The notes beneath the pieces were generated by a model that saw only the letters and a program-made list of their open reading frames with translations, did no database searches and had not been told where the DNA came from. A DNA stretch of 64,000 nucleotides from an uncultured Alphaproteobacteria bacterium (GTDB taxonomy: Bacteria > Pseudomonadota > Alphaproteobacteria > Caulobacterales > Aquidulcibacteraceae), in assembly GCA_902826035.1 (NCBI GenBank), contig CADEDG010000001.1:38305-102304 (forward strand). The letters run 5' to 3'. Shown in pieces: positions 4,101-27,103 of this stretch (position 1 is its first letter; every line of letters begins with the position of its first letter). The position numbers were made by a program, and so were the translations under genes.

Positions 4101-4295
4101 TGGCGTCAGTGGCGAGGCGGCGAGAACGTTAGCGCGTTTCGCGCCGCTTCGGTCCTTCGGTCTCGATGGGTGGCGATCCACGCGGCGCGCACATCCCGCA
4201 TGCGGATTGAAAGTGGCGAGGATTGGAACGCTAACGCCCAGGGCGCCGTTGGAGAGGAATGAGGCGCCCTGTGGCGCGATCGATGGAGTCTCGTC

Positions 4296-4760
4296 ATGGA
4301 AGCAACAGGCAGCCACCATAAGCCCTACGCCCGGCTCGCGATCATGGCGTTGCTTTCCTTCGTCGCCATGTATGCGCTGATGTATGCGATGGTGGATCGC
4401 TTCGCGAACGTCTACCCCAACCTCAATCAAGCCTATATGGCCGCGTTAATGGCAGCGCCGATGGTCGCCATCGAGATCGTATTGATGGCCTCGATGTATC
4501 CGAACCAGCGGACCAACGCCCTCATTCTGGCCGGCAGCGCGCTTGTGCTGGTCGGCGCATTCTGGGCGATCCGTGAACAAGGCGCCATTGGTGACGACGA
4601 GTTTTTACGCTCGATGATCCCCCACCATGCGGGCGCGATCCTGATGTGTGAGGAGGCCTCGATCAGCGACGCCGAGATCCGGGAACTTTGCGGCGCCATC
4701 ATCGAGAGCCAGCGCCAGGAGATCGCGACCATGAAGCAGATGCTTGATCGCCGCGGCTGA
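4296..4760 (+). CDS. DUF305-family Met/His-rich protein with N-terminal membrane segments
   Basis: FLRSMIPHHAGAILMC and IIESQRQEIATMK are DUF305 motifs. Confidence 0.85.
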   Translation: MEATGSHHKPYARLAIMALLSFVAMYALMYAMVDRFANVYPNLNQAYMAALMAAPMVAIEIVLMASMYPNQRTNALILAGSALVLVGAFWAIREQGAIGDDEFLRSMIPHHAGAILMCEEASISDAEIRELCGAIIESQRQEIATMKQMLDRRG

Positions 4761-4774
4761 GCGCCCCTTTGTGT

Positions 4775-6551: not shown

Positions 6552-7052
6552 ATGCGTATCACCTTCACCCGCACTCTGGCGGCCACAGCGCTCAGCCTCG
6601 TCATAAGCGCGTGCGCCGGCGCGCCCGGCGGCGCCATGGCCGGGCGTCAATCCAGCATGCAGCATGAAGGCGGAATGATGCACGGTGGCGACATGATGAT
6701 GTCGATGGGACCGATGGTCGGATGCCCAGGCTCGACCGCAAGTGTTGACGCGCGCTTGGCGTCCTTGCACGCAACGCTGCGGATCACGGGTACGCAGGAA
6801 GCGCTCTGGGCGACGTACGCCGACGCTTATCGCCGGAGCGCGTCATCGATGGGAATGGGAGCGATGGGCTCCATGGGCGCCATGCCGTTGCCCCAGCGTC
6901 TTCAGCATCATGAAACGATGATGTCGACCCATCTTACTTCCCTTCATGACCTTCGCGCGGCGCTTTCGCCTTTGTATGCATCGCTGAGCGCCGAGCAGAA
7001 GGCGATCGCCGATGCGATGGCGTGCGACAGGCCAATGCAAGCGCGGCCTTGA
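6552..7052 (+). CDS. Spy/CpxP (LTXXQ)-family periplasmic chaperone-like lipoprotein with Met/His-rich N-terminus
   Basis: Lipobox ISAC; LRITGTQEALW and LYASLSAEQKAIAD; MQHEGGMMHGGDMMMSM. Confidence 0.8.
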   Translation: MRITFTRTLAATALSLVISACAGAPGGAMAGRQSSMQHEGGMMHGGDMMMSMGPMVGCPGSTASVDARLASLHATLRITGTQEALWATYADAYRRSASSMGMGAMGSMGAMPLPQRLQHHETMMSTHLTSLHDLRAALSPLYASLSAEQKAIADAMACDRPMQARP

Positions 7053-7055
7053 GCC

Positions 7056-7442
7056 GTGAGCTATTATTTCTCGAAGGTTATCGACGCGCCGTTCTCCGAG
7101 GCGGTGGCGCGCACAAAGGCCGCGCTCTCGGCGCACGGCTTTGGCGTGCTGAGCGAGATTGATGTCGCGGCGACCCTGAAGGCGAAGATTGGCGCTGAGA
7201 TGGCGCCCTATCTCATTCTAGGCGCCTGCAATCCCGAATATGCCCACCGTGCGCTCCAGGCCGAGTCCAAGATCGGGACTATGCTGCCGTGCAACGTGAT
7301 CGTGCGCGAGGAAGCGCCGGGAAGGGTCGAGATCGCGGCGGTGGATCCGGTGGCCTCGATGCAAGCAGTGCACAATCCGGCCCTCGCCGAAATCGCGGGG
7401 CCAGTTCGAATGCTCTTGCAGGATGTCATTGAAAAGCTCTAG
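7056..7442 (+). CDS. DUF302 domain protein
   Basis: GFGVLSEID, YLILGACNP and GTMLPCNV motifs. Confidence 0.9.
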   Translation: MSYYFSKVIDAPFSEAVARTKAALSAHGFGVLSEIDVAATLKAKIGAEMAPYLILGACNPEYAHRALQAESKIGTMLPCNVIVREEAPGRVEIAAVDPVASMQAVHNPALAEIAGPVRMLLQDVIEKL

Positions 7443-7738
7443 GCGCCTTTGCGCCGGGCGCATGAGACCGCAAACGTACCATGTGCTGGGCCGCCAAGCG
7501 CCCCCCCGCGTGCTCGCCATCCTGATAGCCCGCGTGTCCGCGCGTATCGAGTGCCGCTTTGCTCTAAAGCCTTCGACACGGTCGGCCTAGAGACGCGCGC
7601 TCGGAGGAAAAGGGTGGCGCACGCGACCACGGAAGTTGGCTTTCCGACGCCGGGAAGCCTTTCATGGGGACTTTCTGTCGTCGAAGTCAGAGACGACGGG
7701 GATACTGCAAGCATGCGCGCGCAACGTGGCCTCGGTCG

Positions 7739-8425
7739 TCAGAACGCCAAGTGCCCAGCGCCGTGGGTGACCTCCGCGCCTAGATAGGCCTGGCCGAGGA
7801 TCACCAGCACTGTGAGTGCAAGCGTGATTTCATAGAGCCGCCCGCCTAGACGCACCGCGGCCTCGTCAACCGGCTTCTTGAGCCACCACACGAACATGAT
7901 GAGGAAGGGGATTGCAGTGCCGATCCAGCGATGCAGCACCAAAGCGGCTTCATCGTCGGCCGCAGGCAGGCCCGCGTTCGCCCAGCCCAAAGGCGCGGCG
8001 GCGAAGGCGCCGAGCGTCGCCACGGCGAGCAGGATCTTGTTGCTCGCCGCATAGATGGGTTTTTGCCGAAACGCCGCCGCCGCTTCGAGGAAGGCGACAG
8101 TCAGCAACAAAGCGATGGGAAAATGGATGACGGCTGGGTGCCACACGCCGAGCCAGCGTATGATCCGGCCCGACAAGGTCGTCGGGCGCGCATCATGATC
8201 CATCATCATCCCGCCCGCGCCTTCGGCGCTCGGCCACGTCATTTCTCCGGGCTGCATAGCGCCCATGTCGTGTTCGGGCGCGGTTTGCGATGAGTCGGTT
8301 TGCGCTGCCTGCGGGGGATGTTCTTCGCCTCTGTGGGCCAAGGAGATCTGAGGGGTGAAGAGCAGCAGCGAAAGCGTCACGGCCAGCATCGCCGCAATGC
8401 GGACCGTCAATTTCTTGTGCGCCAT
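7739..8425 (-). CDS. DUF2231-family membrane protein with N-terminal His/Met segment
   Basis: HPAVIHFPIALL, LHRWIG and GAEVTHG motifs; GAGGGG RBS before ATG 8425. Confidence 0.8.
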   Translation of the reverse strand: MAHKKLTVRIAAMLAVTLSLLLFTPQISLAHRGEEHPPQAAQTDSSQTAPEHDMGAMQPGEMTWPSAEGAGGMMMDHDARPTTLSGRIIRWLGVWHPAVIHFPIALLLTVAFLEAAAAFRQKPIYAASNKILLAVATLGAFAAAPLGWANAGLPAADDEAALVLHRWIGTAIPFLIMFVWWLKKPVDEAAVRLGGRLYEITLALTVLVILGQAYLGAEVTHGAGHLAF

Positions 8426-8491
8426 CTTGTTCCCCTCAAAAGCGCGCCGCACGCGCGAGCGTTAGCCCACGCGTGCGACGTATTGGCCCGC

Positions 8492-8824
8492 CTAAAGTAC
8501 GTGGATTTCCGTCACCATCGGGCGGCCATTGTCGTTCATAAGCTCGAAGTGAACACGCTGCCCAACGCTCACGCCTTGCAGCACCGCAGCTGAGTGAACG
8601 CGGAAGGTCATCGTCATGGCCGGCCAACCGAGGCTTGCGATGGGACCGTGATTGAGCGTGACTGTGCCGGCTTGCGCGTCGATGGCGGTGACGGTGCCTT
8701 CGCCCTCCGCCGTCTGCGGCACGGCCTGATGTTGTTCGCCTTGATGGGCGAGGGCAGGCGCGGTCAGGGCAAAGCTTGACACCATCGCCGCGGCGATTGC
8801 ACTGACCAGAAGTTTGGCTTTCAT
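8492..8824 (-). CDS. cusF: Second CusF-family copper-binding protein
   Basis: Signal peptide; VTLNHGPIASLGWPAMTMTF. Confidence 0.92.
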   Translation of the reverse strand: MKAKLLVSAIAAAMVSSFALTAPALAHQGEQHQAVPQTAEGEGTVTAIDAQAGTVTLNHGPIASLGWPAMTMTFRVHSAAVLQGVSVGQRVHFELMNDNGRPMVTEIHVL

Positions 8825-8868
8825 TTCGAATTCTCCGTTGGTGAGCGTCGGGGCCGCTCACATCCTTC

Positions 8869-8892
8869 ATACGCGCGCTTATAGCCAATCCC
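8869..8892 (-). promoter_or_regulatory. Putative ECF promoter upstream of cusF-2/DUF2231
   Basis: Minus strand (A)GGGATTGGCTATAAGCGCGCGTAT. Confidence 0.75.
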
Positions 8893-9633
8893 TCAACCGT
8901 CGGCGCCAGCGCTCGCCGCAGGCCCGCTTTTGCGCCGGCGCCCGCTTCCAAACCGGATGCGGTAGGGGATGAGCACGATGCCGGCGATCACCGACAGCAG
9001 CGTGATGGCGGTGACAGCGATGATGAGCGGGTGATTGAAGTCCTCATGATTTTGCCAATCCATGATGTGGAGCGCCCACAGAGTGTCGTAGAGCCGCCAC
9101 ATGTCGGAACGCCGCGCCGTGACCGCGCCGGTATTGGCCGCGACATAGACCGCCAACCCGCCATCAGCGAATTGCGCCCGCCAAGCCGGAAGGGCGCCTC
9201 GATATTCAGGGCTCTCGGCTTCGATGAGTTCGACACGTTCGGGAGCGTCGCCAAGTGTGACGTGCGCGCGCGCGATCGCCGTCGCGATCTCGGCGTCGAG
9301 CGGCGACACTTGCCGCAGCGTTGAAGCGTCCAAGAGCGCGGGCGCGCCATCGGCGAATTCGGCGACAATGACTTCGCCCATGACCGGGCGCGTCTCGATC
9401 GTGAGCTTGACCGGCGCACGGCCTTGCGCGTCGCGGATTTGCGCCAATGCGGCGGCGTTCGAAACAGTGAGCGTTCGCACTGTTTCAGCCGGGCGGATGA
9501 GATGTTCACTGCGAATTTGTTCGATCGGGATGATCGTGAAGACAAATCCGCTCACCACCCAAAAAACGATTTGCACCCCGACCAGCAGCGCCAGCCATTT
9601 GTGCACGAACGACGCCAAACGTGCGAGATTCAC
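8893..9633 (-). CDS. PepSY-associated TM-helix membrane protein
   Basis: HKWLALLVGVQIVFWVVSG and WRLYDTLWALHIMDW; common in cop clusters. Confidence 0.85.
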   Translation of the reverse strand: MNLARLASFVHKWLALLVGVQIVFWVVSGFVFTIIPIEQIRSEHLIRPAETVRTLTVSNAAALAQIRDAQGRAPVKLTIETRPVMGEVIVAEFADGAPALLDASTLRQVSPLDAEIATAIARAHVTLGDAPERVELIEAESPEYRGALPAWRAQFADGGLAVYVAANTGAVTARRSDMWRLYDTLWALHIMDWQNHEDFNHPLIIAVTAITLLSVIAGIVLIPYRIRFGSGRRRKSGPAASAGADG

Positions 9634-10018: not shown

Positions 10019-11179
10019 TCAGAACCAAGCGCGAATGCCGAGCACCAGGCGCGCATCCTCGGGATCCTCGCCGCGCGCCTTTAGAAAATCGCGCGTGTCG
10101 CCGAAGCTGCTTGACCATTCAACGCCGACATAAGGCGCAAACTCGCGGCGAATTTCATAGCGCAGACGCACGCCGAGTTCAGCGCTCGTTACGCCCGAGC
10201 CAATCGCAAGTTCGGGAACATCTTCGGCCGACAGATTGATTTCGGCGCGCGGCTGCAAGATGAGGCGTTGCGTCAGGCGCAGATCGTATTCCGCTTCGGC
10301 GCGGGCGCTGAATTCGCCTTCGTTGGAGAGGAAGGCCGCCACGTCGACTTCGAACCAATAGGGCGCGAGGCCCTGCACGCCGACGACAAGATCGGTGCGA
10401 TCGGCATCCGGCGTGTAACGCTGGCGAACCCCGGCCTGGAAATCGAAATAGGGCGTGAACGCGCGGCTGTAGAGCGCTTCTATCTCTGCGGTCTCGAGTT
10501 CGCCGTTGAACGCGCCTTCGCCCTCGCTCTTCCACCAGAAGCGATGAATATCGCCGCCATACCAGCCCTGTGCGTCCCAGACATAGGCGTCCGCGCCCTC
10601 GCCAAAAGTGGCTTCAAGGCGATCGATGATGACGACGCTGGTGCGGATGTCGCCGTTTTCGGCGAGCAATTGTTCGCGCGCCGCGGCCATCGCTCGAGGA
10701 TCGAAATAAAGATCGGCGGCATGCGCCGGTTCGCTGCTCGCAACCGCCGGCGCTGGCGGTTCGCCCGGGCGACCGGGATTGTCCGCGCTGGTCTCGATCT
10801 CGGGGATCGCTGTCATCGCGGACATGTCGTGTCCGCTATGAGCCTCAGCGGGCGGCGTTTGCGGCCAGGCCATTTCCGGCATCGTGGACATGTCATGTCC
10901 AGCGTGCGGATCGGGCGTGGTTTGCGGCATGGTCATGCCTGCATGCGGGTCTGGCGCGGTCTGGGGCATGGCCATGCCCGGCATGCCCGCATGCGGGTCC
11001 GGCGTGGTCTGCGGCGTGGTCATGCCGGACATATCATGGCCCGCGTGCGGATCGGGCGGTTGCGTCTGTTGCTCCGCTGGCGGGGTTTGTTGATGGGCGG
11101 AGTGATCGCTCGTTTGCGCGAGCGCGGGGCTCGCGACCGCGAGCACTAGCGGCGTAAGGGTGGCTGCAAAGAATCTCAC
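10019..11179 (-). CDS. copB: Copper resistance outer-membrane protein CopB
   Basis: WDAQGWYGGD, GLAPYWFEVD and YEIRREFAPYVG; ATGA overlap with the MCO gene. Confidence 0.95.
   Translation of the reverse strand: MRFFAATLTPLVLAVASPALAQTSDHSAHQQTPPAEQQTQPPDPHAGHDMSGMTTPQTTPDPHAGMPGMAMPQTAPDPHAGMTMPQTTPDPHAGHDMSTMPEMAWPQTPPAEAHSGHDMSAMTAIPEIETSADNPGRPGEPPAPAVASSEPAHAADLYFDPRAMAAAREQLLAENGDIRTSVVIIDRLEATFGEGADAYVWDAQGWYGGDIHRFWWKSEGEGAFNGELETAEIEALYSRAFTPYFDFQAGVRQRYTPDADRTDLVVGVQGLAPYWFEVDVAAFLSNEGEFSARAEAEYDLRLTQRLILQPRAEINLSAEDVPELAIGSGVTSAELGVRLRYEIRREFAPYVGVEWSSSFGDTRDFLKARGEDPEDARLVLGIRAWF
10813..11059 (-). repeat. Tandem intragenic DPHAG(H/M)-Met repeats in the CopB N-terminus
   Basis: Four PDPHAG units plus one EAHSGH unit, separated by Met-rich spacers. 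Confidence 0.9.
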
Positions 11180-12999
11180 GAAAGCTCTCCGTCTAGAGGA
11201 CGGATAGTCACCACGTTGAACATGCCGGCATGCATGTGCAGCAAGAGGTGGCAGTGAAACGCCCAGTCTCCCGGATTGTCGGCAGTCAAGTCGAACGTCA
11301 CCTGTCCGCCGGGCGCGACATTGACCGTGTGCTTCAAGGGTTGATGTCCGTCATGGCCGTTGACCAGTTCGAAGAAATGGCCGTGCAAGTGAATGGGGTG
11401 CGACATCATCGTGTCGTTGACGAGCGTAACCCGCACGCGTTCGTTGCGCGCGAACCGGATCGGCTCGACGAGTTCGCTGAAACGCCGGCCGTCAAAGCCC
11501 CACATGAAGCGTTCCATGTTGCCGGTCAGATGAATTTCCATCGTTCGCGACGGCGCCCGGCGATCGCGGTTGGGCGAGAGCGCGACAAGGTCGGTATAGA
11601 CGAGCACGCGGTGATCGACGTTCTCAAGGCCGAGCGGGCGCTCGCCCATCCGGTTCTGCGGCATTGGCGCGATTGTCTGCACGCCAACGCCCACCGCCAT
11701 ATCCGGCGGCGCGTTCTCTGGATCGCGCATATTCATGGCGCCGTGACCGCCCGCGCCGTCATCCGCGGCGCCCATTTGCATGCCCTCCATCTGCATGCCG
11801 CTCATGTCCATGCCCGAATGATCCATACCGGCCATGCCGCCCGACATGTCGTGGCTCATGGCGCCGGTCCCGCCCATGTCCATGCCCATGTCGCGCATGG
11901 TGAGGTTGGGAACTTCACGCAGCGGCGGAATCTCGCCGCTCATGCCAAGCCGCGGCGCCAAGGTCGCGCGGCCCATGCCGGAGCGGTCGATCGCTTCTGA
12001 GACGATTGTGTAAGCGCGGTCTTCGCTCGGGGTGACGATGACGTCGTAGGTTTCGGCGACCGAAATCTGAAATTCATCGACTTCGACGGGGCGCACATTC
12101 TCGCCGTCGGCTTGCACGACGGTCATCGCAAGGCCCGGAATGCGCACATTGAAGATCGACATCGCTGACGCGTTGATGATCCGCAACCGCACCCGCTCGC
12201 CGGGGCGGAAAATGCCCGTCCAGTTTTCTTCGGGGCCGTGACCATTGATGAGGTAGGTGTAAGTCGAGCCGCTGACGTCGAGCACGTCGCGTGGGTCCAT
12301 GCGCATTTCAGCCCACATCCGGCGGTCGGCGGCGCTCATGCGGTCTTCGCCTGAAAAGAGACCCGCCACCGTGGTGCGCTGATAATTGAAATAGCCGGGG
12401 CTTTGCTTGAGGCGCGCCAAAATTTGGTGCGGATGCATGAAGCTCCAGTCCGATAGCACAAGAACGTGCTCGCGGTCGTATTCGACCGGATCGCGCGAGG
12501 CCGGGTCGATGATGATCGGCCCGTAATGGCCCAACGCTTCCTGGAGCCCTGAATGGCTGTGATACCAAAACGTGCCCGCTTGGATGATCGGGAACTCATA
12601 GACAAAAGTCTCGCCAGGGCGAATGCCGGGAAAGCTGATGCCTGGCACGCCGTCCATCTGAAACGGCAGCAGCACGCCGTGCCAGTGGATCGAGGTGTCT
12701 TCTTCCAGCCCATTGGTGACGGACAGGCGGACGTTTTGACCTTCGCGCAGGCGCAGCAGCGGCGCTGGCAGCGTGCCGTTGATGGTGACGGCGTGACCTG
12801 TTCGCCCGCCGACGCTAAAAGGGGAGTGCCCGACATTGAGTGCGACCTCGGGGCCGGCCAAGGTCGTTACTGCCGGCGCGATCCCGGCGGAACCGGTTTG
12901 CGCCCATGCAGGCATCATGCTGTCAAAGGCAAGCCATCCGGCGCCTGCGCCAGCGGCCTTCAACAAAGTTCGACGATCCAGCGCCTTACGCACAAGCAT
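11176..12999 (-). CDS. copA: CopA/PcoA multicopper oxidase, Tat-exported
   Basis: DRRTLL Tat signal; HWHG, WYHSH, HPIHLHGH and HCHLLLHM copper ligands; Met-rich insert. Confidence 0.97.
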   Translation of the reverse strand: MLVRKALDRRTLLKAAGAGAGWLAFDSMMPAWAQTGSAGIAPAVTTLAGPEVALNVGHSPFSVGGRTGHAVTINGTLPAPLLRLREGQNVRLSVTNGLEEDTSIHWHGVLLPFQMDGVPGISFPGIRPGETFVYEFPIIQAGTFWYHSHSGLQEALGHYGPIIIDPASRDPVEYDREHVLVLSDWSFMHPHQILARLKQSPGYFNYQRTTVAGLFSGEDRMSAADRRMWAEMRMDPRDVLDVSGSTYTYLINGHGPEENWTGIFRPGERVRLRIINASAMSIFNVRIPGLAMTVVQADGENVRPVEVDEFQISVAETYDVIVTPSEDRAYTIVSEAIDRSGMGRATLAPRLGMSGEIPPLREVPNLTMRDMGMDMGGTGAMSHDMSGGMAGMDHSGMDMSGMQMEGMQMGAADDGAGGHGAMNMRDPENAPPDMAVGVGVQTIAPMPQNRMGERPLGLENVDHRVLVYTDLVALSPNRDRRAPSRTMEIHLTGNMERFMWGFDGRRFSELVEPIRFARNERVRVTLVNDTMMSHPIHLHGHFFELVNGHDGHQPLKHTVNVAPGGQVTFDLTADNPGDWAFHCHLLLHMHAGMFNVVTIRPLDGELS

Positions 13000-15398: not shown

Positions 15399-16139
15399 CT
15401 ACGCCTCGTCGAATTTCACCGCGCCCGTGATGGTGAGCGGGCTTGCGCCGAACATGCGCGCGCAGGTGCGCGAGAAGTGAGCCGAATCGGCAAAGCCGCC
15501 ATGATGTGCAGCTTCGGTGAGTGACAATCCCTGAGCGATGCCGGTGAAGGCGCGCCGGAGCTTCGACCAAAGCAGGAATGACCGGATCGGCACGCCGATC
15601 TCGTCGCGAAAAAGATGGGCAGCGCGCGATTGCGAGAGATTAAGGGTGCGAGCGAGTGCGCGCGCGTCAAGGGGAGCGTCGCTCTCGTGAAAGGCGCCAA
15701 GCGCTGCACCAATGCGGGCGTCGCGGGCCGGCGCTATCTCTGCGGCGCCCAACAAACCGGCTAGTCGCTCGGCTGGATCGGCGCCTTCATCAGCGATCGA
15801 GGTTTCGACGATGGCGGCCAGTTCTGCTGCTTGGGCCGGGGAAAGCACATTGATCCGATCGCCGATTGCACGAGCGATCCGCTGCCCGGATGTGCTGTCG
15901 GGATCGACGTAGAGAAAACTGCTGGGATAGGCCGCCGTTGCGCGATGAGAGACATTGGCGGGCGCTACAAATCCTTGGCCGTGATGTTCGCCGCTTGCGT
16001 CCACGAGCAGTGCGTGGGGGCCAGCAAATGCTTGAATTGCGTGGTGGCTATGAAAGCCATTGTCGCCCGCGGCGCCAAGGAATGCCGCCCACCACGGCCC
16101 GATGCGGGCTGCGCCCCGCCATTTGGCGACGCTATTCAT
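15399..16139 (-). CDS. AraC-family transcriptional regulator
   Basis: LSQSRAAHLFRDEIG and AAHHGGFADSAHFSRT double-HTH motifs. Confidence 0.92.
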   Translation of the reverse strand: MNSVAKWRGAARIGPWWAAFLGAAGDNGFHSHHAIQAFAGPHALLVDASGEHHGQGFVAPANVSHRATAAYPSSFLYVDPDSTSGQRIARAIGDRINVLSPAQAAELAAIVETSIADEGADPAERLAGLLGAAEIAPARDARIGAALGAFHESDAPLDARALARTLNLSQSRAAHLFRDEIGVPIRSFLLWSKLRRAFTGIAQGLSLTEAAHHGGFADSAHFSRTCARMFGASPLTITGAVKFDEA

Positions 16140-16692
16140 CGCGCAGCGCCCGTGCGAGAGCCAGTTTGGCGCGGTAAACGCGGGTTTCGACGGCTTTGGG
16201 TGTTAAGCTCAGCACGCGCGCGGCGTCGTGATGGCTCATCCCGCTGATCGCTGTCAGCAGCAAAGGTTCTTTCAGACCCGCGGGCAAGGCTGCAATCGCG
16301 GAATCGAGCCGGGTCAGATTGCGCTGCAAGGTCTCGTCGTCAGCGTCTGTCGCGGCGGCGATGTCTGGGGATGTCTGGATGCTCTCGGCGCCAAAGAAGA
16401 AGCGACGAACTGCGCGGCGACGCGCCCAGTCACGGCATTTATTGAGCGCGATCCGCTTGATCCATGCCGGAAATGGACGGTCCTTATCGTAGCGAGCAAG
16501 CGCAAGCCAGGCCGCAGCAAACGCCTCCTGGGTGAGGTCATAGGCTTCGTCGGCGTCGGCCACGTAGGAGCGCACGAACCGGTAAACCTTTTCCTTGTGA
16601 CGGCGCACCAGCAGAGAAAATGCCGCCTCCCGACCCCCGAGCGCCGCTGCCACGAGCGATGCGTCATCGCTTTCGGGCGAGGGGACGCTCAT
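16132..16692 (-). CDS. ECF sigma factor, CnrH-like (module 1)
   Basis: Sigma2 (EAYDLTQEAF, AWIKRIALNKCRDW) and sigma4 (VETRVYRAK); translationally coupled to the sensor gene. Confidence 0.9.
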   Translation of the reverse strand: MSVPSPESDDASLVAAALGGREAAFSLLVRRHKEKVYRFVRSYVADADEAYDLTQEAFAAAWLALARYDKDRPFPAWIKRIALNKCRDWARRRAVRRFFFGAESIQTSPDIAAATDADDETLQRNLTRLDSAIAALPAGLKEPLLLTAISGMSHHDAARVLSLTPKAVETRVYRAKLALARALRDE

Positions 16693-17126
16693 TGGGGCTC
16701 GGCGGTTAACGCCTCGACGACGGTATCGTCGAAGATCGCCTTCTGCTCATCGTTCAGGACCTCGCGCATCGCAAACATGTGAGCGATGGTTTCGGTCTGT
16801 AGCCGCCCCATCGCGTCATGAAATCGCTCAACCGCAGCCGCGACCCTTGGACCGTTCTCATGCTCTTCGCGGATGGCCGCGGCCAGCTCGGCGTTGGCGG
16901 AGCGCATTTCAAGTTCAAGCGCGTGCTTGCGGGCGGCGAACGCGCCTTCCAGCGTCTCGATTCTAGCGAGTTGATCGCCGCTTAGATCAAGGCGGTGATG
17001 CACGACATCGTGCATTGAGGGTGCAGGCCCCGGCGCCAGCGCCTTCATGCCTAACCAGACCCCGCCGAAACCTGCCGCCAAGGCCACCAACGCCGTCAGC
17101 AAGATGGCCCGACCCGAAAGTCTCAA
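16689..17126 (-). CDS. Periplasmic heavy-metal sensor, CnrX/NccX-like (module 1)
   Basis: One TM helix, then HDVVHH, FHDAMGRLQ and HMFAMREVL: the His/His/Glu/His/Met ligand pattern. Confidence 0.88.
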   Translation of the reverse strand: MRLSGRAILLTALVALAAGFGGVWLGMKALAPGPAPSMHDVVHHRLDLSGDQLARIETLEGAFAARKHALELEMRSANAELAAAIREEHENGPRVAAAVERFHDAMGRLQTETIAHMFAMREVLNDEQKAIFDDTVVEALTAEPQ

Positions 17127-17404
17127 CGATCATCCCCGAGCAAGGTCGAAGGCGCATAAGCGGCATGCACCGCAAAGGGCGAGAAATCGATCGCGGGGCG
17201 GGCCGCTGAGGCGCCGCCAGCAAAGGCGCCGAAGGTCAGCATTACTGCAGCTAGGGCCGCTTGCCAGCGCCAGGCGCGGGGCGGCCCGACGATCATGCGC
17301 GCGGCTTCAATTTGCTCCCAAACCTTCGGCTCCAACTGATCGAGCCTGCGGTCAAGCGGGCGTTCGCGAAGTGCAAGGAGCAATCGTTCAAGGTCGACGG
17401 TCAT
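17123..17404 (-). CDS. Anti-sigma factor, CnrY-like (module 1)
   Basis: LDQLEPKVWEQI, one TM helix, C-terminal FAVHAAYAPSTLLG; first gene of a Y-X-H order. Confidence 0.8.
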   Translation of the reverse strand: MTVDLERLLLALRERPLDRRLDQLEPKVWEQIEAARMIVGPPRAWRWQAALAAVMLTFGAFAGGASAARPAIDFSPFAVHAAYAPSTLLGDDR

Positions 17405-17430
17405 GGTTTCCAACTCTTGTTCCACCAGCA

Positions 17431-17454
17431 ATACGCACGAATACGCCGGAACCC
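17431..17454 (-). promoter_or_regulatory. Putative autoregulatory ECF promoter of the cnrY-X-H-like operon
   Basis: Minus strand (A)GGGTTCCGGCGTATTCGTGCGTAT. Confidence 0.8.
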
Positions 17455-17473
17455 TCAAGCGGCCTTCACTTGA

Positions 17474-17497
17474 GGGTTTTCGACCGGTGCTGCGTAG
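17474..17497 (+). promoter_or_regulatory. Putative ECF promoter upstream of MTase-DUF411-pyruvyltransferase
   Basis: (A)GGGTTTTCGACCGGTGCTGCGTAG. Confidence 0.7.
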
Positions 17498-17543
17498 CAA
17501 GAGGGAAGGGTGGAAAACCGCCCCGGGCGAGGGAGCGCAGCTT

Positions 17544-18751: not shown

Positions 18752-19918
18752 ATGAGCTGGCGGCGGCGCATAATTATCCTTGGAACGTATGGCGGCGGCA
18801 ACTTTGGCAACGACGCTTGTTTCGAGGCGACGCTCGGGTGGCTGCGCGCCGCCTTCACCAACGCCTCGATTCTAGCCGTTTGCGCCGACCCCATGATCAC
18901 GTCGGAGCGCTTTGGAATTCCGGCGGTCAGTCTCAGAGTGTTTCCGCCGCTGCTGCCGCGTTGGCTCGATACGCTGCTACTGCGCCAGCCCAGCCTTTGG
19001 TTGAATTGGTGGGCATGTTTTGGAGCCCTGAAGCGCTGTGATCTGTTGGTTGTCGCGGGCGCGGGCATTATTCATGATTTCCGCGACCGCCCGTGGGGAT
19101 GGCCCAGCCGCTTCCTCCGTTGGATTCTTGCTGCGCGCCTGCAGGGCGCATCCGTTTGGTTTGCCTGCGTCGGTGCGGGCCCGGTTATCAATCCGGTCAG
19201 CCGATTGATGATGGTTTGGGCGGCGAAGCTCGCGACCAGGCGTTGCTATCGTGACGAAAGCTCTCGCGCCTACATGAGTGCGCGAGGAGTGGACGAAACC
19301 GCGAGCCAGGTTAGCGGCGACATCGCCTTCTTGCTGCCCGCCCCAACACCAAGCGATCACGGCGCCAGACAAATCGTCGTGGGCGTCGGGATCATGAACT
19401 ATCGAGGCTGGCGCACCAACGAAAAAATCTACCGCGCCTACATCGAAAGCATGGCCCATCTCATCGAATGGCTGAAATTCAAGGGACATAAGGTTCGTAT
19501 TCTGATCGGTCAGCGGCCAACCGATCTCATCGCCGTCGGTGATCTTGAAGCGCGCTTGGGCTATGCGTTGATGAGCGACGCAGAGCGTGAGGTCCGCTCC
19601 TATCAGGACATCTTGAATGTGGTCGCCGACACTGACCTGGTCGTAGCTTCGCGTTACCACGTGCAGATTGCGGCCCTCAAAATGGGCCGTCCCGTGCTTT
19701 CGATCAGTTACGGGCCGATGAACGATGACCTGATGCGCGCTGCAGGTCTTGGCGTCTTCATCCATGACATCGAGCACATGGATCATCGCGCGCTCATTTT
19801 ACAGTGCGACCAACTCATCAATATGCGCGTTCACTACGCAAAGGTCGTGCAAACGGAAATCAAGGCATTGGAGGCCGGGCTGCATGAGCGACTACGAGCC
19901 TTCATTTCACCTTCCTAG
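18752..19918 (+). CDS. Polysaccharide pyruvyl transferase family protein
   Basis: GTYGGGNFGND, GVGAGP-like CVGAGP, YRDESS and SRYHVQIAA. Confidence 0.82.
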   Translation: MSWRRRIIILGTYGGGNFGNDACFEATLGWLRAAFTNASILAVCADPMITSERFGIPAVSLRVFPPLLPRWLDTLLLRQPSLWLNWWACFGALKRCDLLVVAGAGIIHDFRDRPWGWPSRFLRWILAARLQGASVWFACVGAGPVINPVSRLMMVWAAKLATRRCYRDESSRAYMSARGVDETASQVSGDIAFLLPAPTPSDHGARQIVVGVGIMNYRGWRTNEKIYRAYIESMAHLIEWLKFKGHKVRILIGQRPTDLIAVGDLEARLGYALMSDAEREVRSYQDILNVVADTDLVVASRYHVQIAALKMGRPVLSISYGPMNDDLMRAAGLGVFIHDIEHMDHRALILQCDQLINMRVHYAKVVQTEIKALEAGLHERLRAFISPS

Positions 19919-20342
19919 CGCGGCCTGGCCGGCGCGCGACCTTGGCCGTGGTTTTCGGGGCGGCGAGATCATCAAGGATCGGACACTCGGGACGATCGTC
20001 GCCGTGGCAGGCATGGACGAGCCGCTTCAGCGTCCGCGACACCGTTCGCATTTCGGCCATGCGCGCCTCGATGTCGGCCAAGTGCTTTTCGGCAAGGCGG
20101 CGCACCTCGCGCGACGATCGGCGCCGGTTGCGCCAGAGCGCCACCAGAGAAGCGACCTCTTCAAGCGAAAAACCCATATCCCGGGTCCGCCGGACGAACT
20201 GGAGCATCGCAACTTCGTGGTCGCCATAGTCACGATAGCCATTGTCGCGGCGGCCGGCCGCTTCAATCAGGCCTATGCTCTCATAATAGCGGATCATCTT
20301 CGCCGATACGCCCGATTGCTCGGCGGCCATACTAATGTTCAT
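19902..20342 (-). CDS. cueR: Cu(I)-responsive MerR-family regulator CueR
   Basis: MNISMAAEQSGVSAKMIRYYE; CHGDDRPECPIL metal loop. Confidence 0.95.
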   Translation of the reverse strand: MNISMAAEQSGVSAKMIRYYESIGLIEAAGRRDNGYRDYGDHEVAMLQFVRRTRDMGFSLEEVASLVALWRNRRRSSREVRRLAEKHLADIEARMAEMRTVSRTLKRLVHACHGDDRPECPILDDLAAPKTTAKVARRPGRARKVK

Positions 20343-20369: not shown

Positions 20370-20400
20370 TTGACCTTCCCATTGTGGGAAGGTGCAGGCT
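20370..20400 (+). promoter_or_regulatory. CueR-type sigma70 promoter with operator
   Basis: -35 TTGACC (20370-20375), 19-bp spacer, -10 CAGGCT. Inverted repeat ACCTTCCCA-TTG-TGGGAAGGT at 20373-20393. Confidence 0.9.
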
Positions 20401-20445
20401 GCTTTTCAAGTCAAACCAGGAGCGCGAGCGCTCGCGTTATCAGCT

Positions 20446-22866
20446 ATGAACACTCACGACCACAGCCACGATCATAAGAGCCAAGCAGCCGCCGGTGGCG
20501 CGCCGCGCGATCCCGTCTGCGGCATGACGCCCAAGCCTGACACGCCGCACAGGCTCATGCACGCAGGCCAAGAGGTGCTGTTCTGCAGTGCTGGCTGCAA
20601 GGCCAAGTTCGAGGCTGATCCCGCGAAATATACCAGGTCCGCCGGCGAGCACGCTTGCTGCGCCAAGCCTGCCGCAGCAGATGAGGCCGGCTCATGCCAT
20701 GCGCACGGCCATGCGCCGCACGGCGCGCCGGCCGTCGATCCGATGACAGTTCCGGCCGGCTCGAAATGGACCTGCCCAATGCACCCCGAAATCGTCCGCG
20801 ATGGGCCGGGCTCATGCCCGATTTGCGGCATGGCGCTTGAGCCGATGATGCCCAGCGCCGACGCCGGACCCAATCCGGAACTGATCGACATGACGCGCCG
20901 CTTCTGGATCGGTGCGGCGCTCGCCTTGCCGGTGCTGGCGCTCGAAATGGGCCGCCACTTCCTTGGTATCGATGGCTTCGTGCCGCCGGCTTGGAACGGT
21001 TGGTTGCAGTTTGCGCTGGCGAGCCCTGTCGTCCTGTGGGGCGGCTGGCCGTTTTTCGAGCGCGGCTGGGCCTCGCTTCAAACCCGCCATCTCAACATGT
21101 TCACTTTGATTGCGCTGGGGACTGGCGTGGCGTGGTTTTACAGCGTCGTCGCGCTCTTTGCGCCGTCGCTCTTTCCGGCGGAGTTCCGAGACGCGCATGG
21201 TCTCGTTGCTGTCTACTTCGAGGCGGCCGCCGTGATCACGGTGCTGGTTCTGTTGGGTCAGGTGCTTGAGCTGCAAGCGCGCGAGCGCACCGGCGGGGCT
21301 ATTCGTGCGTTGCTTGATCTTGCGCCCAAAACGGCGCGGCGTCTGCGCGATGGCGTCGAAGAAGAAGTTCCGCTCGATCAGATCGTCGTGGGCGATCGCC
21401 TGCGCGTGCGTCCGGGTGAGAAAATTCCCGTCGACGCCATGGTGCTCGACGGTCGCTCCTCCATCGATGAATCCATGGTGACGGGCGAATCGATGCCGGT
21501 GACGCGGGAGGGCGGCGAGCGCGTCATCGGCGGGACCCTCAATCAGACAGGCGCATTGGTCATTGAAGCCGATCGCGTCGGCGCCGACACGATGCTCTCG
21601 CGCATCGTCCAGATGGTGGCTGAGGCCCAACGGTCGCGTGCTCCAATTCAGCGGTTGGCGGACAAGGTGTCGGGCTGGTTTGTGCCGGCCGTCATCGTGG
21701 TCGCCGTGATCGCCTTCTTGACCTGGTGGGCGTTTGGCCCATCGCCGGCGTTGTCCTACGGCCTGATCGCGGCGGTCTCGGTGCTGATCATTGCCTGCCC
21801 ATGTGCGCTGGGGCTCGCCACGCCTATGTCGATCATGCAGGGCGTGGGGCGCGGCGCGCGCGCGGGCGTCCTCATCAAGAACGCCGAAGCGTTGGAGCGG
21901 TTCGAGAAGGTTGATACGCTTGTGCTCGACAAGACCGGCACGCTGACCGAAGGCAAGCCGGCGGTGACCGCCATTCACACCGTCGGCGGCGGCGAATTGA
22001 ATGAGATGCTGCGCCTTGCCGCAAGCCTTGAGAATCGCAGCGAACATCCGCTCGGCTTGGCCATTGTAGCAGCAGCGCAAGCGCGTGGCGTTGGGCTTGT
22101 CGAGCCGACAGAATTCGACTCGCCCACTGGCAAGGGCGTCCTCGGCGTCGTTGAGGGGCGCATCATTGTGATCGGTGCGGAACGCTTTCTAGACGAACAG
22201 GGCATCGACGCGTCGGGCTTGAAGAGCGAAGCGGACGCCGCGCGACGCGACGGTGCAACTGCGATCTATGTCGCCATCGACGGTACGCTTTCAGGTCTCT
22301 TTGCGATCGCCGATCCGGTAAAGCCGACGACACTGGCGGCGCTTGAAGCCTTGCGGGCTCAAGGCATGCGGCTCGTCATGTTGACCGGCGACAACCGAAC
22401 CACGGCCGAGGCGGTGGCGCGCGGCCTTGGCATCGATGAGATCGAGGCCGAGGTGTTGCCGGAAGACAAGTCGCGCATTGTCGAGCGCCTTAAACGGGAG
22501 GGGCGCGTGGTGGCGATGGCGGGTGACGGGGTCAACGATGCGCCCGCTCTCGCCGCGGCCGACGTCGGCATCGCTATGGGCGGGGGTACGGATGTGGCGA
22601 TCGAGAGCGCAGGCGTTACGCTGTTGCGCGGCGACCTTGGCGGCATCGTCCGCGCCCGCATCATCTCGCGTGCGGTCATGCGCAACATCCGCCAAAACTT
22701 GTTCTTCGCGTTCGCCTACAACATCGCCGGCATTCCGATCGCCGCGGGCGTTCTCTATCCGATAACCGGGGCGCTGCTTTCGCCGATGATTGCGGCCATG
22801 GCGATGGCGTTGTCGTCCGTATCGGTTATCGCGAACTCTCTGCGCCTGGGCTCTTTGCGGGTCTGA
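20446..22866 (+). CDS. copA: Cu(I)-exporting P1B-1 ATPase with YHS domain
   Basis: DPVCGM..FCSAGC (YHS), WTCPMHP..CPICGM, CPC, DKTGTLT, YN and MALSS. Confidence 0.97.
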
Positions 22867-23025
22867 GGCCGGCTGAGCGGGAAGGGCGGCCCGCGTGGCC
22901 GTCCGTCCCGTCGGACTGAGTGTGGGAGTTGAGCCGCAACGCGCCCTGGCGCCTTGTGTCGCTACGCTCAAGAAAATTGTTCAAGGCGCTGTGGAATGTC
23001 CCCGATCTCTCGAAGCGTATCAATG

Positions 23026-23097
23026 CGAGCGCGCACAATCCGGAGCACGGGGCGTGCGGGAGGGGCCGGGGAAAATGATCCAAACTGGCGCGCTCAC
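23026..23097 (-). ncRNA. Candidate structured RNA, copy A (orphan, ECF promoter-driven)
   Basis: Starts 6 nt after GCGTAT; terminal stem GAGCGCGC/GCGCGCTC; internal GGATC and CCCCTCCC; homologous to 48370-48439 and 54377-54448. Confidence 0.5.
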
Positions 23098-23103
23098 TTA
23101 GAT

Positions 23104-23127
23104 ATACGCGCAGCGACCTCGAACCCC
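23104..23127 (-). promoter_or_regulatory. Putative ECF promoter with no downstream gene
   Basis: Minus strand GGGGTTCGAGGTCGCTGCGCGTAT. Confidence 0.65.
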
Positions 23128-23317
23128 GCACGCCGTGCACTGCGCGAGCTCCGACCATCGCGGCGTGTGCAAGGGTGTCAGGCGCGCTTCGTCATTCTGT
23201 GACGAATAGATTTGCCCTCGCTCGGGCGGGGTAGGCACAAATACTGCTTCAGGAAACGCACCGGACCTTACGTTCAGTTTGTGTGCCAACCATCCCGGAA
23301 ACTCGTTTAGAGGGCGT

Positions 23318-24538
23318 ATGTCGCGCGAGAATTATATCTTCACCAGCGAGAGCGTGTCAGAGGGCCACCCGGATAAGGTGGCCGACCGCATCTCCGACAC
23401 CGTCGTGGACGCGTTCATCGAGGCCGATCCCGAAGCCCGCGTCGCCTGCGAAACCATGGTCACCACTAACCGCATCATCCTCGCCGGTGAAGTGCGGGCC
23501 GGGAAGCCGGGCAATGACAAGGCCGCCAACAAGGCCTTCACTAAGGACATCATCGCGTCGCTGCAGCCGAAGGTCCGCACGGCGGTGAAGGACATCGGCT
23601 ACGAGCAAAAGGGCTTTCACTGGGAGAAGGCGCGCTTCGCCAACTATCTGCATGGCCAGTCGGCGCACATCGCCCAAGGCGTCGATGCGTCGGCGAAGAA
23701 GGATGAAGGCGCCGGCGACCAGGGCATCATGTTCGGCTACGCCTGCGAGGAAACGCCGGAGCTGATGCCGGCGACGCTGCAATACTCGCACAACATTTTG
23801 AAGCGTCTCGCCGAAGTGCGCCACAGCGGCGAACGCCCGGAACTAGAGCCGGACGCGAAAAGCCAAGTCACGCTACGTTACGAAAACGGCAAGCCCGTCG
23901 AGGTCGTCGCCATCGTCGTCAGCCACCAGCACAAGAAAAAACTGGGCGAGAAGAGCTACAGCCAGTCGCGCTTTGCCGAACTCGTAAAGCCGATCGCCGC
24001 TTCGGTTTTCCCTGAGGGGCTCATCACCAAGAAAACCAAGTGGCACATCAACCCAACCGGCAAGTTCGAGATCGGCGGCCCGGATGGCGATAGTGGTTTG
24101 ACCGGCCGCAAGATCATCGTCGACACTTACGGCGGCGCAGCCCCGCACGGCGGCGGCGCATTCTCTGGCAAAGACCCAACGAAGGTGGACCGCTCTGCCG
24201 CTTATGCCTGCCGCTATCTGGCGAAGAACGTTGTCGCCGCCGGCCTTGCACAGCGCTGCACCATTCAGATCAGCTACGCGATCGGCGTCGCTGTGCCGAC
24301 CAGCTTCTACGTCGATCTCCATGGCGCCGACACGATTGATCCCGCGATTCTCGAAGCGAAATTGCCAGAGTTGATCGGCGGCGCGACTCCACGTTCGATC
24401 CGCAACCATCTGAAGCTCAATCGCCCGATCTATGCGCGCACCGCCGCCTACGGCCATTTCGGCCGTCTGCCCGACAATGAAGGCGGCTTCACTTGGGAAA
24501 ACCTGGATCTCGCCGCTGAGTTGCGGCGCCTTCGCTAA
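23318..24538 (+). CDS. metK: S-adenosylmethionine synthetase
   Basis: [32 protein letters not shown] and GGGAFSGKD. Confidence 0.98.
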
Positions 24539-24666
24539 TCGCTTTTGCTCCTTGCTGCGGGCGTTGGCCGGGCGGAACGCTGCCGCCAACCGGTCCAGCC
24601 GCCCCGCAGCCCTTGGCTTCCGCTCGGTTAGCCGCAAAAGTGTCCTCGGAAGAGGCGATCAATCCC

Positions 24667-25245
24667 ATGGCTGCGGACCCAAGCGACTTGCCAGAAGCTG
24701 ATGTGCGGCGCGCACTTGAAGAGGGGCTCGACAAGATCCGTGCCTACCTCCGCTCCAGGCTGGGCGATCCAAATCATGCCGACGAAGTGCTGCAGGCTTT
24801 TTGCGCCCGGGCCTTGGAACGAGCCAGCGATCTGAAAGAGGGCGGCGCGGCGCGTTCCTGGTTGTCGCGCGTACTGGCGACCGCCATCGCCGATCACTAT
24901 CGCGGCCTCGCCCGGCGACGGGCGCGCGAAGCGCCAGCCGAGGAGCTGAGCTCTCTCGCAGCCGAGACAGAAGCGGACAGCGCTGCTTGCGCGTGTTTGC
25001 TGGCGCTCCTGGATGCTCTTGCCGCAAAGGATGCGGCGCTCATTAGAAACATCGATCTCGAGGGCCGAGATCGGACGAGTGTCGCCGCGAATCTGGGTTT
25101 GACCTTAAATGCGCTGACCGTCCGCTTACACCGCGCGCGGGCGCGGCTAAGAGAGCTGGTGCTGCGACTCTGCGCCGTGTGCGTCATCCACGGCTTTGGC
25201 GAGTGCGAATGTCCGCCGCCCAACCCGGCGAGTGCGGAACACTGA
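24667..25245 (+). CDS. ECF sigma factor with CxC linker and C-terminal Cys-rich domain (CorE/SigZ-like)
   Basis: Sigma2 and sigma4 (LTVRLHRARARL); linker CAC; tail CAVCVIHGFGECEC; no adjacent co-oriented anti-sigma. Confidence 0.85.
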   Translation: MAADPSDLPEADVRRALEEGLDKIRAYLRSRLGDPNHADEVLQAFCARALERASDLKEGGAARSWLSRVLATAIADHYRGLARRRAREAPAEELSSLAAETEADSAACACLLALLDALAAKDAALIRNIDLEGRDRTSVAANLGLTLNALTVRLHRARARLRELVLRLCAVCVIHGFGECECPPPNPASAEH

Positions 25246-25541
25246 TAGGCAAGCGCCAAACGACACCGTTTTTGTCTGTCCCCCTGAGGTCGGCGAAAGG
25301 CCACAAAATGGGCGAGCGGGGGCGCCCAATCGGTCGTGGAGGGGGCTGCCTGTAATAATTGCGCCGCCGCAGCGTCCTTTCCTTCAAAGGGCGCTCCAAG
25401 AATGAACCAGGCTTTCCGGTGAAGATGCAGTCTTACGAAAGCACGGGTGTGGGCCATTCTTCCGCGCCAGCTTCATCGAACCCCATGCGCGTCGATCGCC
25501 ATTCTTGGTTTCCTTCGCATCGCGAAAGCGGCGGCCTCCGC

Positions 25542-25988
25542 TCATTCTTCGTCCACGCCGCGCAACAATTCTTCACGCACGATCATGTCGAACCGCGCCT
25601 GTTGATCGGCATTGAGCACAGCACGCATTTCGAAGACGTGCGCGATAGCGTCTCTTTGGGTTTGGCCCATGGCGTTGTGAAACCGATCAATCGCTTGGCT
25701 GAGGCGCTCACTCTGGGCGTGATCCTCGACCACGGCGGCGGCGATATCCCGCGCGGCCGCGCGCAGCTCGGCGTCAAGGGCCGCTTGGCGCAATGCGTAA
25801 CCGGCTTCGATCGCTTCCAGACGCCGGTCCTGTTCGGGCGTCAGATCAAGTTCGCGATGAACCGCGGCGTCGAGCGTGTCCCGATGGGTGTCGGAACGTG
25901 TGAGAATTGTCCCGACAAACACGCCCCCCAGCCCGGAGCCGAGCCCCACGAGTGCTGCGAGCGCCAGCAGCTTCCAGGTTTTCAACAT
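25542..25988 (-). CDS. Periplasmic heavy-metal sensor, CnrX-like (module 2)
   Basis: AAVHRELDL, FHNAMGQTQ and HVFEMRAVL; paralog of 16689..17126. Confidence 0.88.
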   Translation of the reverse strand: MLKTWKLLALAALVGLGSGLGGVFVGTILTRSDTHRDTLDAAVHRELDLTPEQDRRLEAIEAGYALRQAALDAELRAAARDIAAAVVEDHAQSERLSQAIDRFHNAMGQTQRDAIAHVFEMRAVLNADQQARFDMIVREELLRGVDEE

Positions 25989-25991
25989 GAC

Positions 25992-26237
25992 TTATCGGCC
26001 GAGGGCAGTGGCGGGCGCATAGGGCTGATCGAGCGCAAACGGTCCAACATCGACCGTAGCCGACGCGGCGGCCGTCGATACGCCAACGGCGGAACTGACC
26101 ATCAGGACGAGGGCGCAGACCCCGGCGACCGCGCCGTTGGCGCCAGCGCCGGCGCGGTGTCGCGCGCGCGCGTCAATACGAGCCCAGACATCGCTTTCCA
26201 GTCCGTCCAATGCTGTGTCGATGTCCACCCGGCCCAA
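25992..26237 (-). CDS. Anti-sigma factor, CnrY-like (module 2); start may be GTG 26228
   Basis: LDGLESDVWARI, TM helix, FALDQPYAPATALG; paralog of 17123..17404. Confidence 0.78.
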   Translation of the reverse strand: MGRVDIDTALDGLESDVWARIDARARHRAGAGANGAVAGVCALVLMVSSAVGVSTAAASATVDVGPFALDQPYAPATALGR

Positions 26238-26295
26238 GGCTGCGAGTTGGCGATCAAGGTCGGTCAGGGAAGCCTCCGGGCGATCACGCTCTTCT

Positions 26296-26319
26296 ATACG
26301 CGCGCGGCGAGGCGCGCCC
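26296..26319 (-). promoter_or_regulatory. Putative ECF promoter of the module-2 Y-X operon
   Basis: Minus strand (AG)GGGCGCGCCTCGCCGCGCGCGTAT. Confidence 0.72.
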
Positions 26320-26467
26320 CTGGAACAGCTAGCCCATCGCGCTGCGGCAGATCAAGAATGAGACGCTCAAGACGCACTTGCAGGAGGTTGATCCAAAGCA
26401 AAGCACGGGTTCAGGTTAGGCGCGACCTTGTCATGGGGTCCCGGTTTTGGCGGCCTGCGAGGCGACC

Positions 26468-27103
26468 ATGAAACGCATGACGGCTCAGGCTTTGGTGCAG
26501 TCGGGGCAGGCCCGCTCGCCGCTGCGACGCGTCGCCTTCACCGGCGGGTTCGATGATCTGATTGCAGGCGCCCGGAGCGGCGATCGGGCGGCATTCAGCA
26601 CGCTGATGAGAAGCCACAAAGACGATCTGTTTCGCTTCGTGCGCCGGCGCGTCGCCAACGCCGACGCGGCAAGCGATATCGTTCAAGAAGCCTTCGTGGC
26701 AGCCTGGAGCGCGATGGCAAACTTCGATCCGGAGCGCTCGTTCAAGACCTGGCTGCACGCCATCGCGTTGAACAAGTGCCGTGACGCGGCGCGCCGCGCC
26801 GCGACCCGCCGAGCTTTCTGGGGCGACTGTCCCGACGGCGACGATTTGCGCGTCGCCGATGAGCGGCCATCGCCCGAAGCGGAGACAGTGAGCCGCGATG
26901 AGTTGCGAATGCTGCGCGGGGCGCTGGCGACCTTGCCGGAGCATCTGCGCGAGGCGCTGATGCTGACCGCCGTCGATGGTCTCTCGCAAGCAGCCGCCAG
27001 CGCGACCCTTGGATGCTCGGTCAAATCGCTTGAATATCGCGTCCACCGGGCGCGTGAATTGCTCACAGCCGAGATGGAACGCAGCGCCATGCCGCGCCGC
27101 TAG
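26468..27103 (+). CDS. ECF sigma factor, CnrH-like (module 2)
   Basis: AASDIVQEAF, TWLHAIALNKCRDA and LEYRVHRAR; divergent from its Y-X pair. Confidence 0.88.
   Translation: MKRMTAQALVQSGQARSPLRRVAFTGGFDDLIAGARSGDRAAFSTLMRSHKDDLFRFVRRRVANADAASDIVQEAFVAAWSAMANFDPERSFKTWLHAIALNKCRDAARRAATRRAFWGDCPDGDDLRVADERPSPEAETVSRDELRMLRGALATLPEHLREALMLTAVDGLSQAAASATLGCSVKSLEYRVHRARELLTAEMERSAMPRR

Follow-up and report, generated by a model that had tools for sequence, protein, structure and literature searches.

A further CorE-like ECF sigma factor, a predicted metal sensor, in an alphaproteobacterial copper island

The window analyzed here is a stretch of 64,000 nucleotides that carries a copper island in a genome of about 3.1 Mb (3.14 Mb) assembled from a metagenome; among named organisms, Hyphomonadaceae and Terricaulis are nearest to it. 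On the minus strand, genes for CopB and a multicopper oxidase (10019-12999) precede a Y-X-H module (16132-17500), in which a CnrY-like protein and a CnrX-like sensor are encoded together with an ECF sigma factor designated ECF1. In gene order, a methyltransferase, a DUF411 protein and a pyruvyl transferase then lead to cueR (19902-20342, minus strand), the product of which scored 158.6 bits against TIGR02044, over the cut-off of 147.4 bits. A CueR box, TTGACCTTCCCATTGTGGGAAGGT (20370-20393), lies ahead of the gene for a CopA-type P1B ATPase on the plus strand (20437-22866). Its dyad could be read straight from the sequence as ACCTTCCC-N5-GGGAAGGT, and the canonical CueR operator TTGACCTTCCC-N5-GGGAAGGT occupies the same positions. 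The pump has a CPC motif and an N-terminus with YHS and HMBD domains (Pfam and NCBIfam), and its start is most likely ATG 20437 and not GTG 20392. In eight of nine close relatives, a P1B ATPase gene stands directly upstream of the sigma factor gene that is the subject of this study (24667-25245, plus strand); the CopA-type pump is its ancestral upstream neighbor. Between the two genes, the window contains a second copy of metK (23318-24538, plus strand; Pfam), 85% identical to the copy on contig C71, which is carried on an insertion of roughly 1.7 kb (22906-24610). None of the nine close relatives has metK at this spacer, and the ancestral spacer between pump and sigma factor genes was split around the insertion.

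Downstream of the sigma factor gene and convergent with it, the minus strand encodes a CnrX-like sensor (cnrX2, 25542-25988; PF13801 Metal_resist, 3.2e-11) and a small CnrY-like membrane protein (cnrY2, 25992-26237). Divergent from these two lies the gene for ECF2 (26447-27103, plus strand), a conventional ECF sigma factor by both Pfam and NCBIfam. ECF2 has its own conserved upstream block, which begins with TTGATCC and was kept across an insertion of 390 bp in one relative (locus L082). Metal-related genes also accompany the sigma factor gene elsewhere: P1B ATPase genes were found near it in eight of nine close and 12 of 71 distant loci, and DUF411, multicopper oxidase, CopB and CDF transporter genes also lie beside relatives. 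A previous sequence-only reading of the window had described a cytoplasmic metal sensor working alongside two CnrYXH-like modules and CueR. Both modules, each with a sensor, a small membrane protein and an ECF sigma factor (16132-17500 and 25542-27103), and CueR with its box are indeed present. The additional claim that this control is unusually layered was overstated, since a 2011 study had already listed alphaproteobacterial CorE-like genes within copper islands (PMC3107203).

The sigma factor gene itself runs on the plus strand from ATG 24667 to the stop codon at 25243-25245 and encodes a protein of 192 amino acids. An upstream TTG (24613) was rejected as the start codon, since ATG 24667 agrees with the start position in all close relatives. 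Pfam assigned residues 21-83 (24727-24915) to the sigma2 domain (PF04542, Sigma70_r2; E = 2.8e-08) and residues 110-161 (24994-25149) to the sigma4.2 region (PF08281, Sigma70_r4_2), and no other Pfam domain was detected in the protein. We aligned it with 26 relatives drawn from a collection of 5.8 billion proteins (alignment A1). Within sigma2, W65-L66-S67 and D76 were invariant, and so were N148, V152, R153, L154, H155, R156 and R158 in sigma4.2, where the recognition helix extends from N148 to R158. The ratio dN/dS against relatives of its own lineage was 0.14-0.27, and the gene is under purifying selection within this lineage.

Six of the seven cysteines of the protein form a distinct pattern. 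Two of them make up a CxC motif, C108-A109-C110 (24988-24996), where the linker meets sigma4, and the other four form the core of a Cys-rich domain (CRD), C169-xx-C172-x7-C180-x-C182 (25171-25212). Directly after sigma4.2, this tail reads C169-A-V-C172-V-I-H-G-F-G-E-C180-E-C182 and is followed by 10 residues. All six cysteines were invariant in the 26 relatives, down to 39% identity, and the seventh, C46, varied among them. The pattern is more than chance, since the alignment has only 36 invariant columns in total. The relation to CorE and CorE2 of Myxococcus was drawn from published residue numbers and strain lists rather than from a direct alignment; on this basis, the six CorE positions minus 12 give exactly 108, 110, 169, 172, 180 and 182, and the distance from C108 to the first CRD cysteine is 61 residues in both this protein and CorE. 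In an AF2 model the core was folded, and the tail had no confident fold, with pLDDT below 50 for residues 171-192. The nearest solved structures were those of SigL and SigH of Mycobacterium tuberculosis; the matches reached about profile position 183, and none of the matched structures spanned the Cys-rich tail.

CorE-like sigma factors (formerly ECF44, now merged into ECF238) are characterized by an ECF core, a CRD, a CxC motif and the lack of a linked anti-sigma factor (PMC3107203, PMC4937300, PMC8999054, PMC6851896). Four CRD cysteines, corresponding to CorE residues 181, 184, 192 and 194, are universally conserved (PMC3107203), and the CxC motif between sigma2 and sigma4.2 is formed by residues 120 and 122 in CorE and by residues 108 and 110 in CorE2 (PMC4937300). 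The protein studied here has sigma2 and sigma4.2 as its only domains, a C-x2-C-x7-C-x-C tail (C169/C172/C180/C182) with spacing identical to that of CorE, and the CxC motif C108-A-C110. Its gene is preceded by metK and followed by 296 nt of non-coding DNA and then by a convergent gene, and no co-oriented anti-sigma gene flanked the sigma factor gene at this locus or in the contexts read for its relatives. Features of CnrH-like (ECF20-type) sigma factors were not found: the gene is convergent with cnrX2Y2, and no GGG motif lies upstream of it. The best NCBIfam match was SigZ (TIGR02959; 1.4e-23), at 83.6 bits under the cut-off of 168.65 bits, and the second-best model scored 29 bits lower; SigZ and CorE2 are both members of ECF238 (PMC7826278). 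Thus, the sequence-only reading of this open reading frame as a Cys-rich ECF sigma factor of the CorE type agrees with our results, including the CAC motif between the two sigma domains and the C-terminal Cys-rich sequence exactly as quoted. The CorE-type family was already known, and the gene is a further member of it.

Relatives are widespread. A scan of one genome per species found 289 of them, and Alphaproteobacteria supplied nearly all of the best 80 of these. A profile search yielded at least 776 clusters at 90% identity (E <= 1e-8); among the best 120 matches listed, the named ones were nearly all alphaproteobacterial and none was myxobacterial. Among the members of the clade is EAQ23357.1 of Roseovarius sp. 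217 (43% identity over residues 1-182), the gene of which lies about 1.4 kb from that of a second CRD sigma factor; three such proteins were listed for this strain in the founding CorE paper (PMC3107203). Across genera of Rhodobacterales (Sulfitobacter, Roseovarius, Hoeflea, Yoonia, Phaeobacter and others; L024-L034 and other loci), near-identical CorE-like genes occur together with near-identical neighbors, and these loci carry two CRD sigma paralogs. The occurrence of the same genes and neighbors in so many genera suggests that they belong to a mobile island.

Two promoter motifs could be distinguished in and around the island. The first, GGG-N15-GCGTA, occurred 19 times in the window against 1.4 expected, an excess of about 14-fold; examples are found at 13036 (minus) and 13093 (plus), 17432 (minus) and 17474 (plus), 26297 (minus), 28316 (plus), and 48447 (minus) and 48509 (plus). 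It precedes both cnrY genes, the site upstream of cnrY2 being located at 26297-26319 on the minus strand. Among more than 90 related loci, the motif was numerous only in those with CnrX/CnrH-like genes (L001-L009, L062, L073, L079 and L081-L083), and it was absent or single in more than 60 other CorE-like loci that lack such genes. Judging from this co-occurrence, GGG-N15-GCGTA belongs to the CnrH-like sigma factors and not to the CorE-like one.

The second motif, TGTAA-N15-17-GCGTC, was matched 90 times in 940 kb of sequence around CorE-like genes, compared with seven matches in the whole 3.14-Mb genome, for which shuffled sequence yielded 14-21. A TGTAA-type motif was present beside the CorE-like gene in 45 of 80 loci: in 35 of the 80 it was on the same strand at positions -220 to -20 of the gene, and in 12 it lay right after the stop codon. 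The motif also agrees with the proposed CorE promoter, in which AAC at -35 is followed 16-18 nt further on by a conserved G. Since the sigma4.2 recognition helix is invariant, -35 specificity should be common to the clade, and it is reasonable to assign the motif to the protein in the window as well. Hence, TGTAA(C/T)-N15-16-GCGTC, rather than GGG-N15-GCGTA, is most likely the cognate promoter sequence of this sigma factor. It should be noted that a second ECF paralog often adjoins CorE-like genes and that some of these paralogs are CRD sigma factors with a TGTAA motif after their own stop codon; the motif could belong to the adjoining paralog. In three Sphingomonadales loci (L062, L073 and L079, around 1620-1750), TGTAA-type and GGG-N15-GCGTA sites located in one and the same intergenic region are both aimed at an operon of DUF411 and P1B ATPase genes, the control of which may be shared by the two sigma systems.

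On the contig of the window, the sole TGTAA-type site is a candidate CorE-class promoter, TGTAAT-N15-GCGTC (TGTAATAATTGCGCCGCCGCAGCGTC; 25351-25376, plus strand), which begins about 105 nt after the stop codon of the sigma factor gene and faces the 3' end of cnrX2. A looser pattern, TGTAA-N16-18-CGTC, matched 14 sites in the 3.1-Mb genome, mostly inside coding sequence; three appeared intergenic, one of them before the gene for a TonB-dependent receptor on contig C38. At this last site (around 13061, minus strand), TGTAA-N16-GCGTC precedes the gene for this receptor of 654 amino acids. The TGTAAT block of the window was conserved in L005, L009 and L006/L082 while the flanks diverged; in L009 and L005 it was nearly identical, the flanks being unalignable and dS being 1.0-1.5, which is near saturation. 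In L006 and L082, the site precedes a gene for a lipoprotein of 99 amino acids rich in His and Asp (9187-9486, plus strand, in L082, a relative of 74% identity). Between the sigma factor gene and the site, L082 also contains two fragments of open reading frames with CxxxCxxC repeats (8640-9023, minus strand), which resemble four-helix-bundle copper-binding proteins. Downstream of the site in the window, no obvious gene was found, and the search for a conserved open reading frame, a stable fold or a repeat was likewise negative. A small RNA or small open reading frame between TGTAAT and cnrX2 was rejected, the fold z-score being -1.13 and neither genome repeats nor a conserved start codon being detected. 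The idea that TGTAAT is the sole promoter of ECF2 was weakened, since the conserved upstream block of ECF2 makes a further promoter unnecessary.

The segment immediately upstream of the sigma factor gene (24606-24666, plus strand) is also conserved and contains a putative housekeeping-type promoter for the gene and a putative ribosome-binding site. The block CTTGGCTTCCGC..GGTTAGCCGCAA..GAAGAGGCGATC is common to L001-L004, L007 and L008 and remained attached to the sigma factor gene when metK was inserted. The segment is free of both TGTAA-type and GGG-type motifs, and autoregulation of the gene through either motif was discarded. A GGG-like match upstream of the gene in L007 and L008 falls within a GC-rich hairpin and is not conserved. 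It appears from the sequence of this 60-nt block that the gene is expressed from its own non-ECF promoter.

In distant relatives, the TGTAA motif is linked to particular target genes. In L064, L065 and L078 (Paracoccus, Jannaschia and Sphingobium), the gene that follows it encodes a small peptide containing CCC/CC clusters, and the next one a P1B ATPase with a CPD membrane motif (6901-9237, 6813-9233 and 3477-5954, respectively). The small proteins (6620-6841, 6641-6850 and 3222-3404) are 60-73 amino acids long, carry GCCCGGG close to the N-terminus and either GCCGG or GCCC at the C-terminus, and may be metal-binding or leader peptides. In L068, a gene for an archaeal-type GAPDH (6615-7667) comes after the sigma factor gene. 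The window contains orthologs of both: its CPD pump (49928-52210), 23 kb away from the sigma factor gene, is 63-66% identical to the pumps of the relatives, and its GAPDH (48784-49902) is 63% identical to that of L068. Here the two genes form an operon (48784-52210) that stands behind a GGG-N15-GCGTA site (48509, plus strand), with no TGTAA site. It appears that an ancestral target, driven in relatives from a TGTAA motif, has been rewired to the CnrH-type regulon, a shift between sigma motifs that would exemplify concretely how the regulons of a metal-resistance island can be rewired.

Taken together, we consider it quite probable that 24667-25245 encodes a CorE-like ECF sigma factor (former ECF44, within ECF238) which acts as a one-protein cytoplasmic metal sensor at TGTAA-type promoters. 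[quoted passage not shown] Both direct metal binding and independence from an anti-sigma factor are what we infer for this protein from the two Myxococcus proteins. The metal could not be read from the sequence, since the equivalents of CorE Cys189 (F177 here) and CorE2 Cys174 (V173 here) are missing; judged from the surroundings, it is probably copper.

Each of three other explanations appeared less likely than the CorE-type mechanism. The one that survives best keeps the same fold and supposes that the protein senses zinc, cadmium, oxidative stress or the thiol-redox state, its position in a copper island being incidental. The tail has only the minimal four cysteines and no counterpart of the cysteine chiefly responsible for the activation of CorE by copper, CorE2 responds to cadmium and zinc (PMC4937300), and the CxC and CRD motifs resemble those of zinc-binding anti-sigma (ZAS) factors (PMC6851896). 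Some relatives adjoin genes for a CDF transporter, thioredoxin/DsbA or cytochromes and not copper genes. However, the lineage keeps the gene beside a CopA-type pump controlled by CueR, the island also holds multicopper oxidase, CopB and DUF411 genes, and the motif-linked operons of distant relatives encode P1B ATPases of the copper family (TIGR01511), which make a sensor for something other than copper unlikely.

The strict invariance of the six cysteines would be equally compatible with a structural and a sensory site. They might form a zinc site needed for folding, with the sigma factor controlled otherwise, for example at the level of transcription or through capture by CnrY2. Deletion of the CRD inactivates CorE and CorE2 and does not activate them (PMC4937300), which speaks for such a site, and the distance to a CnrY-like anti-sigma gene is only about 750 nt. 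On the other hand, the activity of CorE and CorE2 depends on added metal, and single changes to Cys or Ala swap their specificity between cadmium and copper (PMC4937300); overproduction failed to bypass the metal requirement. With regard to CnrY2, its gene is convergent with the sigma factor gene, has a divergent ECF2 partner of its own and carries a CnrH-type motif, and most CorE-like loci lack CnrY and CnrX. We regard this explanation as very unlikely. That the sigma factor is a stranded remnant which controls nothing important in this genome, its ancestral targets having passed to the CnrH-type regulon, might be suggested by a single nearby TGTAA-type site with no gene downstream and by the position of the CPD pump/GAPDH operon behind GGG-N15-GCGTA, but it is very unlikely given the low dN/dS, the six cysteines kept across the lineage and a promoter block conserved against L009 and L005 despite near-saturated synonymous sites.

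With the CorE-type mechanism taken as the preferred one, the position of 25351-25376, the only TGTAA-type promoter predicted near the gene, leaves room for a more speculative wiring. In this lineage, the sigma factor would no longer drive a pump and would instead fire from this site into the convergent cnrX2-cnrY2 operon; in response to metal sensed in the cytoplasm, antisense transcription would lower the expression of the anti-sigma factor and free ECF2 and the GGG-N15-GCGTA regulon. A cytoplasmic sigma system would thereby be linked in a cascade to a periplasmic one through antisense interference, and we hold this wiring to be distinctly improbable.

To our knowledge, only two CorE-type sigma factors have been studied, both from Myxococcus. 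The present results leave the knowledge of how this family works unchanged; what they add is the promoter assignment, the split of two sigma regulons within one island, where the TGTAA motif separates the CorE-like from the CnrH-type regulon, and a CPD pump operon that appears to have been rewired. The clade described here is far larger than that pair and is minimal in that its members have the CxC motif and, in the tail, only the four universal cysteines; it thus offers a clean model for the core residues of the metal site. In addition, the predicted promoter TGTAA-N15-17-GCGTC provides a direct handle for reporters and biosensors.

One of the known systems closest to the one described here is CorE (MXAN_3426) of Myxococcus xanthus, the copper-dependent founder of ECF44. 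Both proteins combine sigma2 and sigma4.2 with a short Cys-rich tail, have the CxC motif and four tail cysteines at the same relative positions (offset 12), and lack a linked anti-sigma gene. Both genes stand among genes for copper handling, those for a P1B ATPase and for a multicopper oxidase among them, and each proposed promoter combines AAC or AAT at -35 with a G/CGTC element 15-18 nt further on. In CorE, C120 and C122 are essential for activity (PMC4937300), and Cys189 is the main residue of copper activation (PMC3107203). The distance from the first tail cysteine to the C-terminus is about 24 residues here (from C169) compared with 38 in CorE, and the tail has four cysteines rather than six; Cys189 (F177 here) and Cys206 have no equivalent, whereas a conserved histidine, His175, is present. 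The host here is an alphaproteobacterium.

The member that responds to cadmium and zinc, CorE2 (MXAN_5263) of M. xanthus, shares with the protein described here the CxC motif at residues 108 and 110 and a short CRD, and also, putatively, expression of the sigma factor gene that does not depend on metal and target genes directly 3' of it. However, its tail has six cysteines, including Cys174, which sets cadmium specificity and is replaced by Val173 here, and its targets are known to be a CDF pump and a glyoxal-oxidase protein. In 2011, CRD sigma factors of Alphaproteobacteria were listed together with CorE, from Roseovarius sp. 217, Roseovarius sp. TM1035 and Roseobacter litoralis as well as Mesorhizobium sp. 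BNC1, Rhodopseudomonas palustris TIE-1 and Phenylobacterium zucineum (PMC3107203). These proteins share a clade with the one in the window, none of them has been characterized, and in EAQ23357.1 of Roseovarius sp. 217 both the CxC motif and the C-xx-C-x7-C-x-C pattern recur. The best curated match, SigZ of Bacillus subtilis (TIGR02959; ECF238 subgroup 9), also has no known anti-sigma factor, but it contains only two C-terminal cysteines (PMC7826278). Finally, CnrH/CnrY/CnrX of Cupriavidus metallidurans (ECF20) is likewise a metal-responsive ECF system, and two similar systems flank the sigma factor gene in the window. CnrH is freed from a membrane anti-sigma factor upon periplasmic metal sensing, whereas the CorE-like protein is without such a partner, has a predicted cysteine sensor of its own and goes with another promoter motif.
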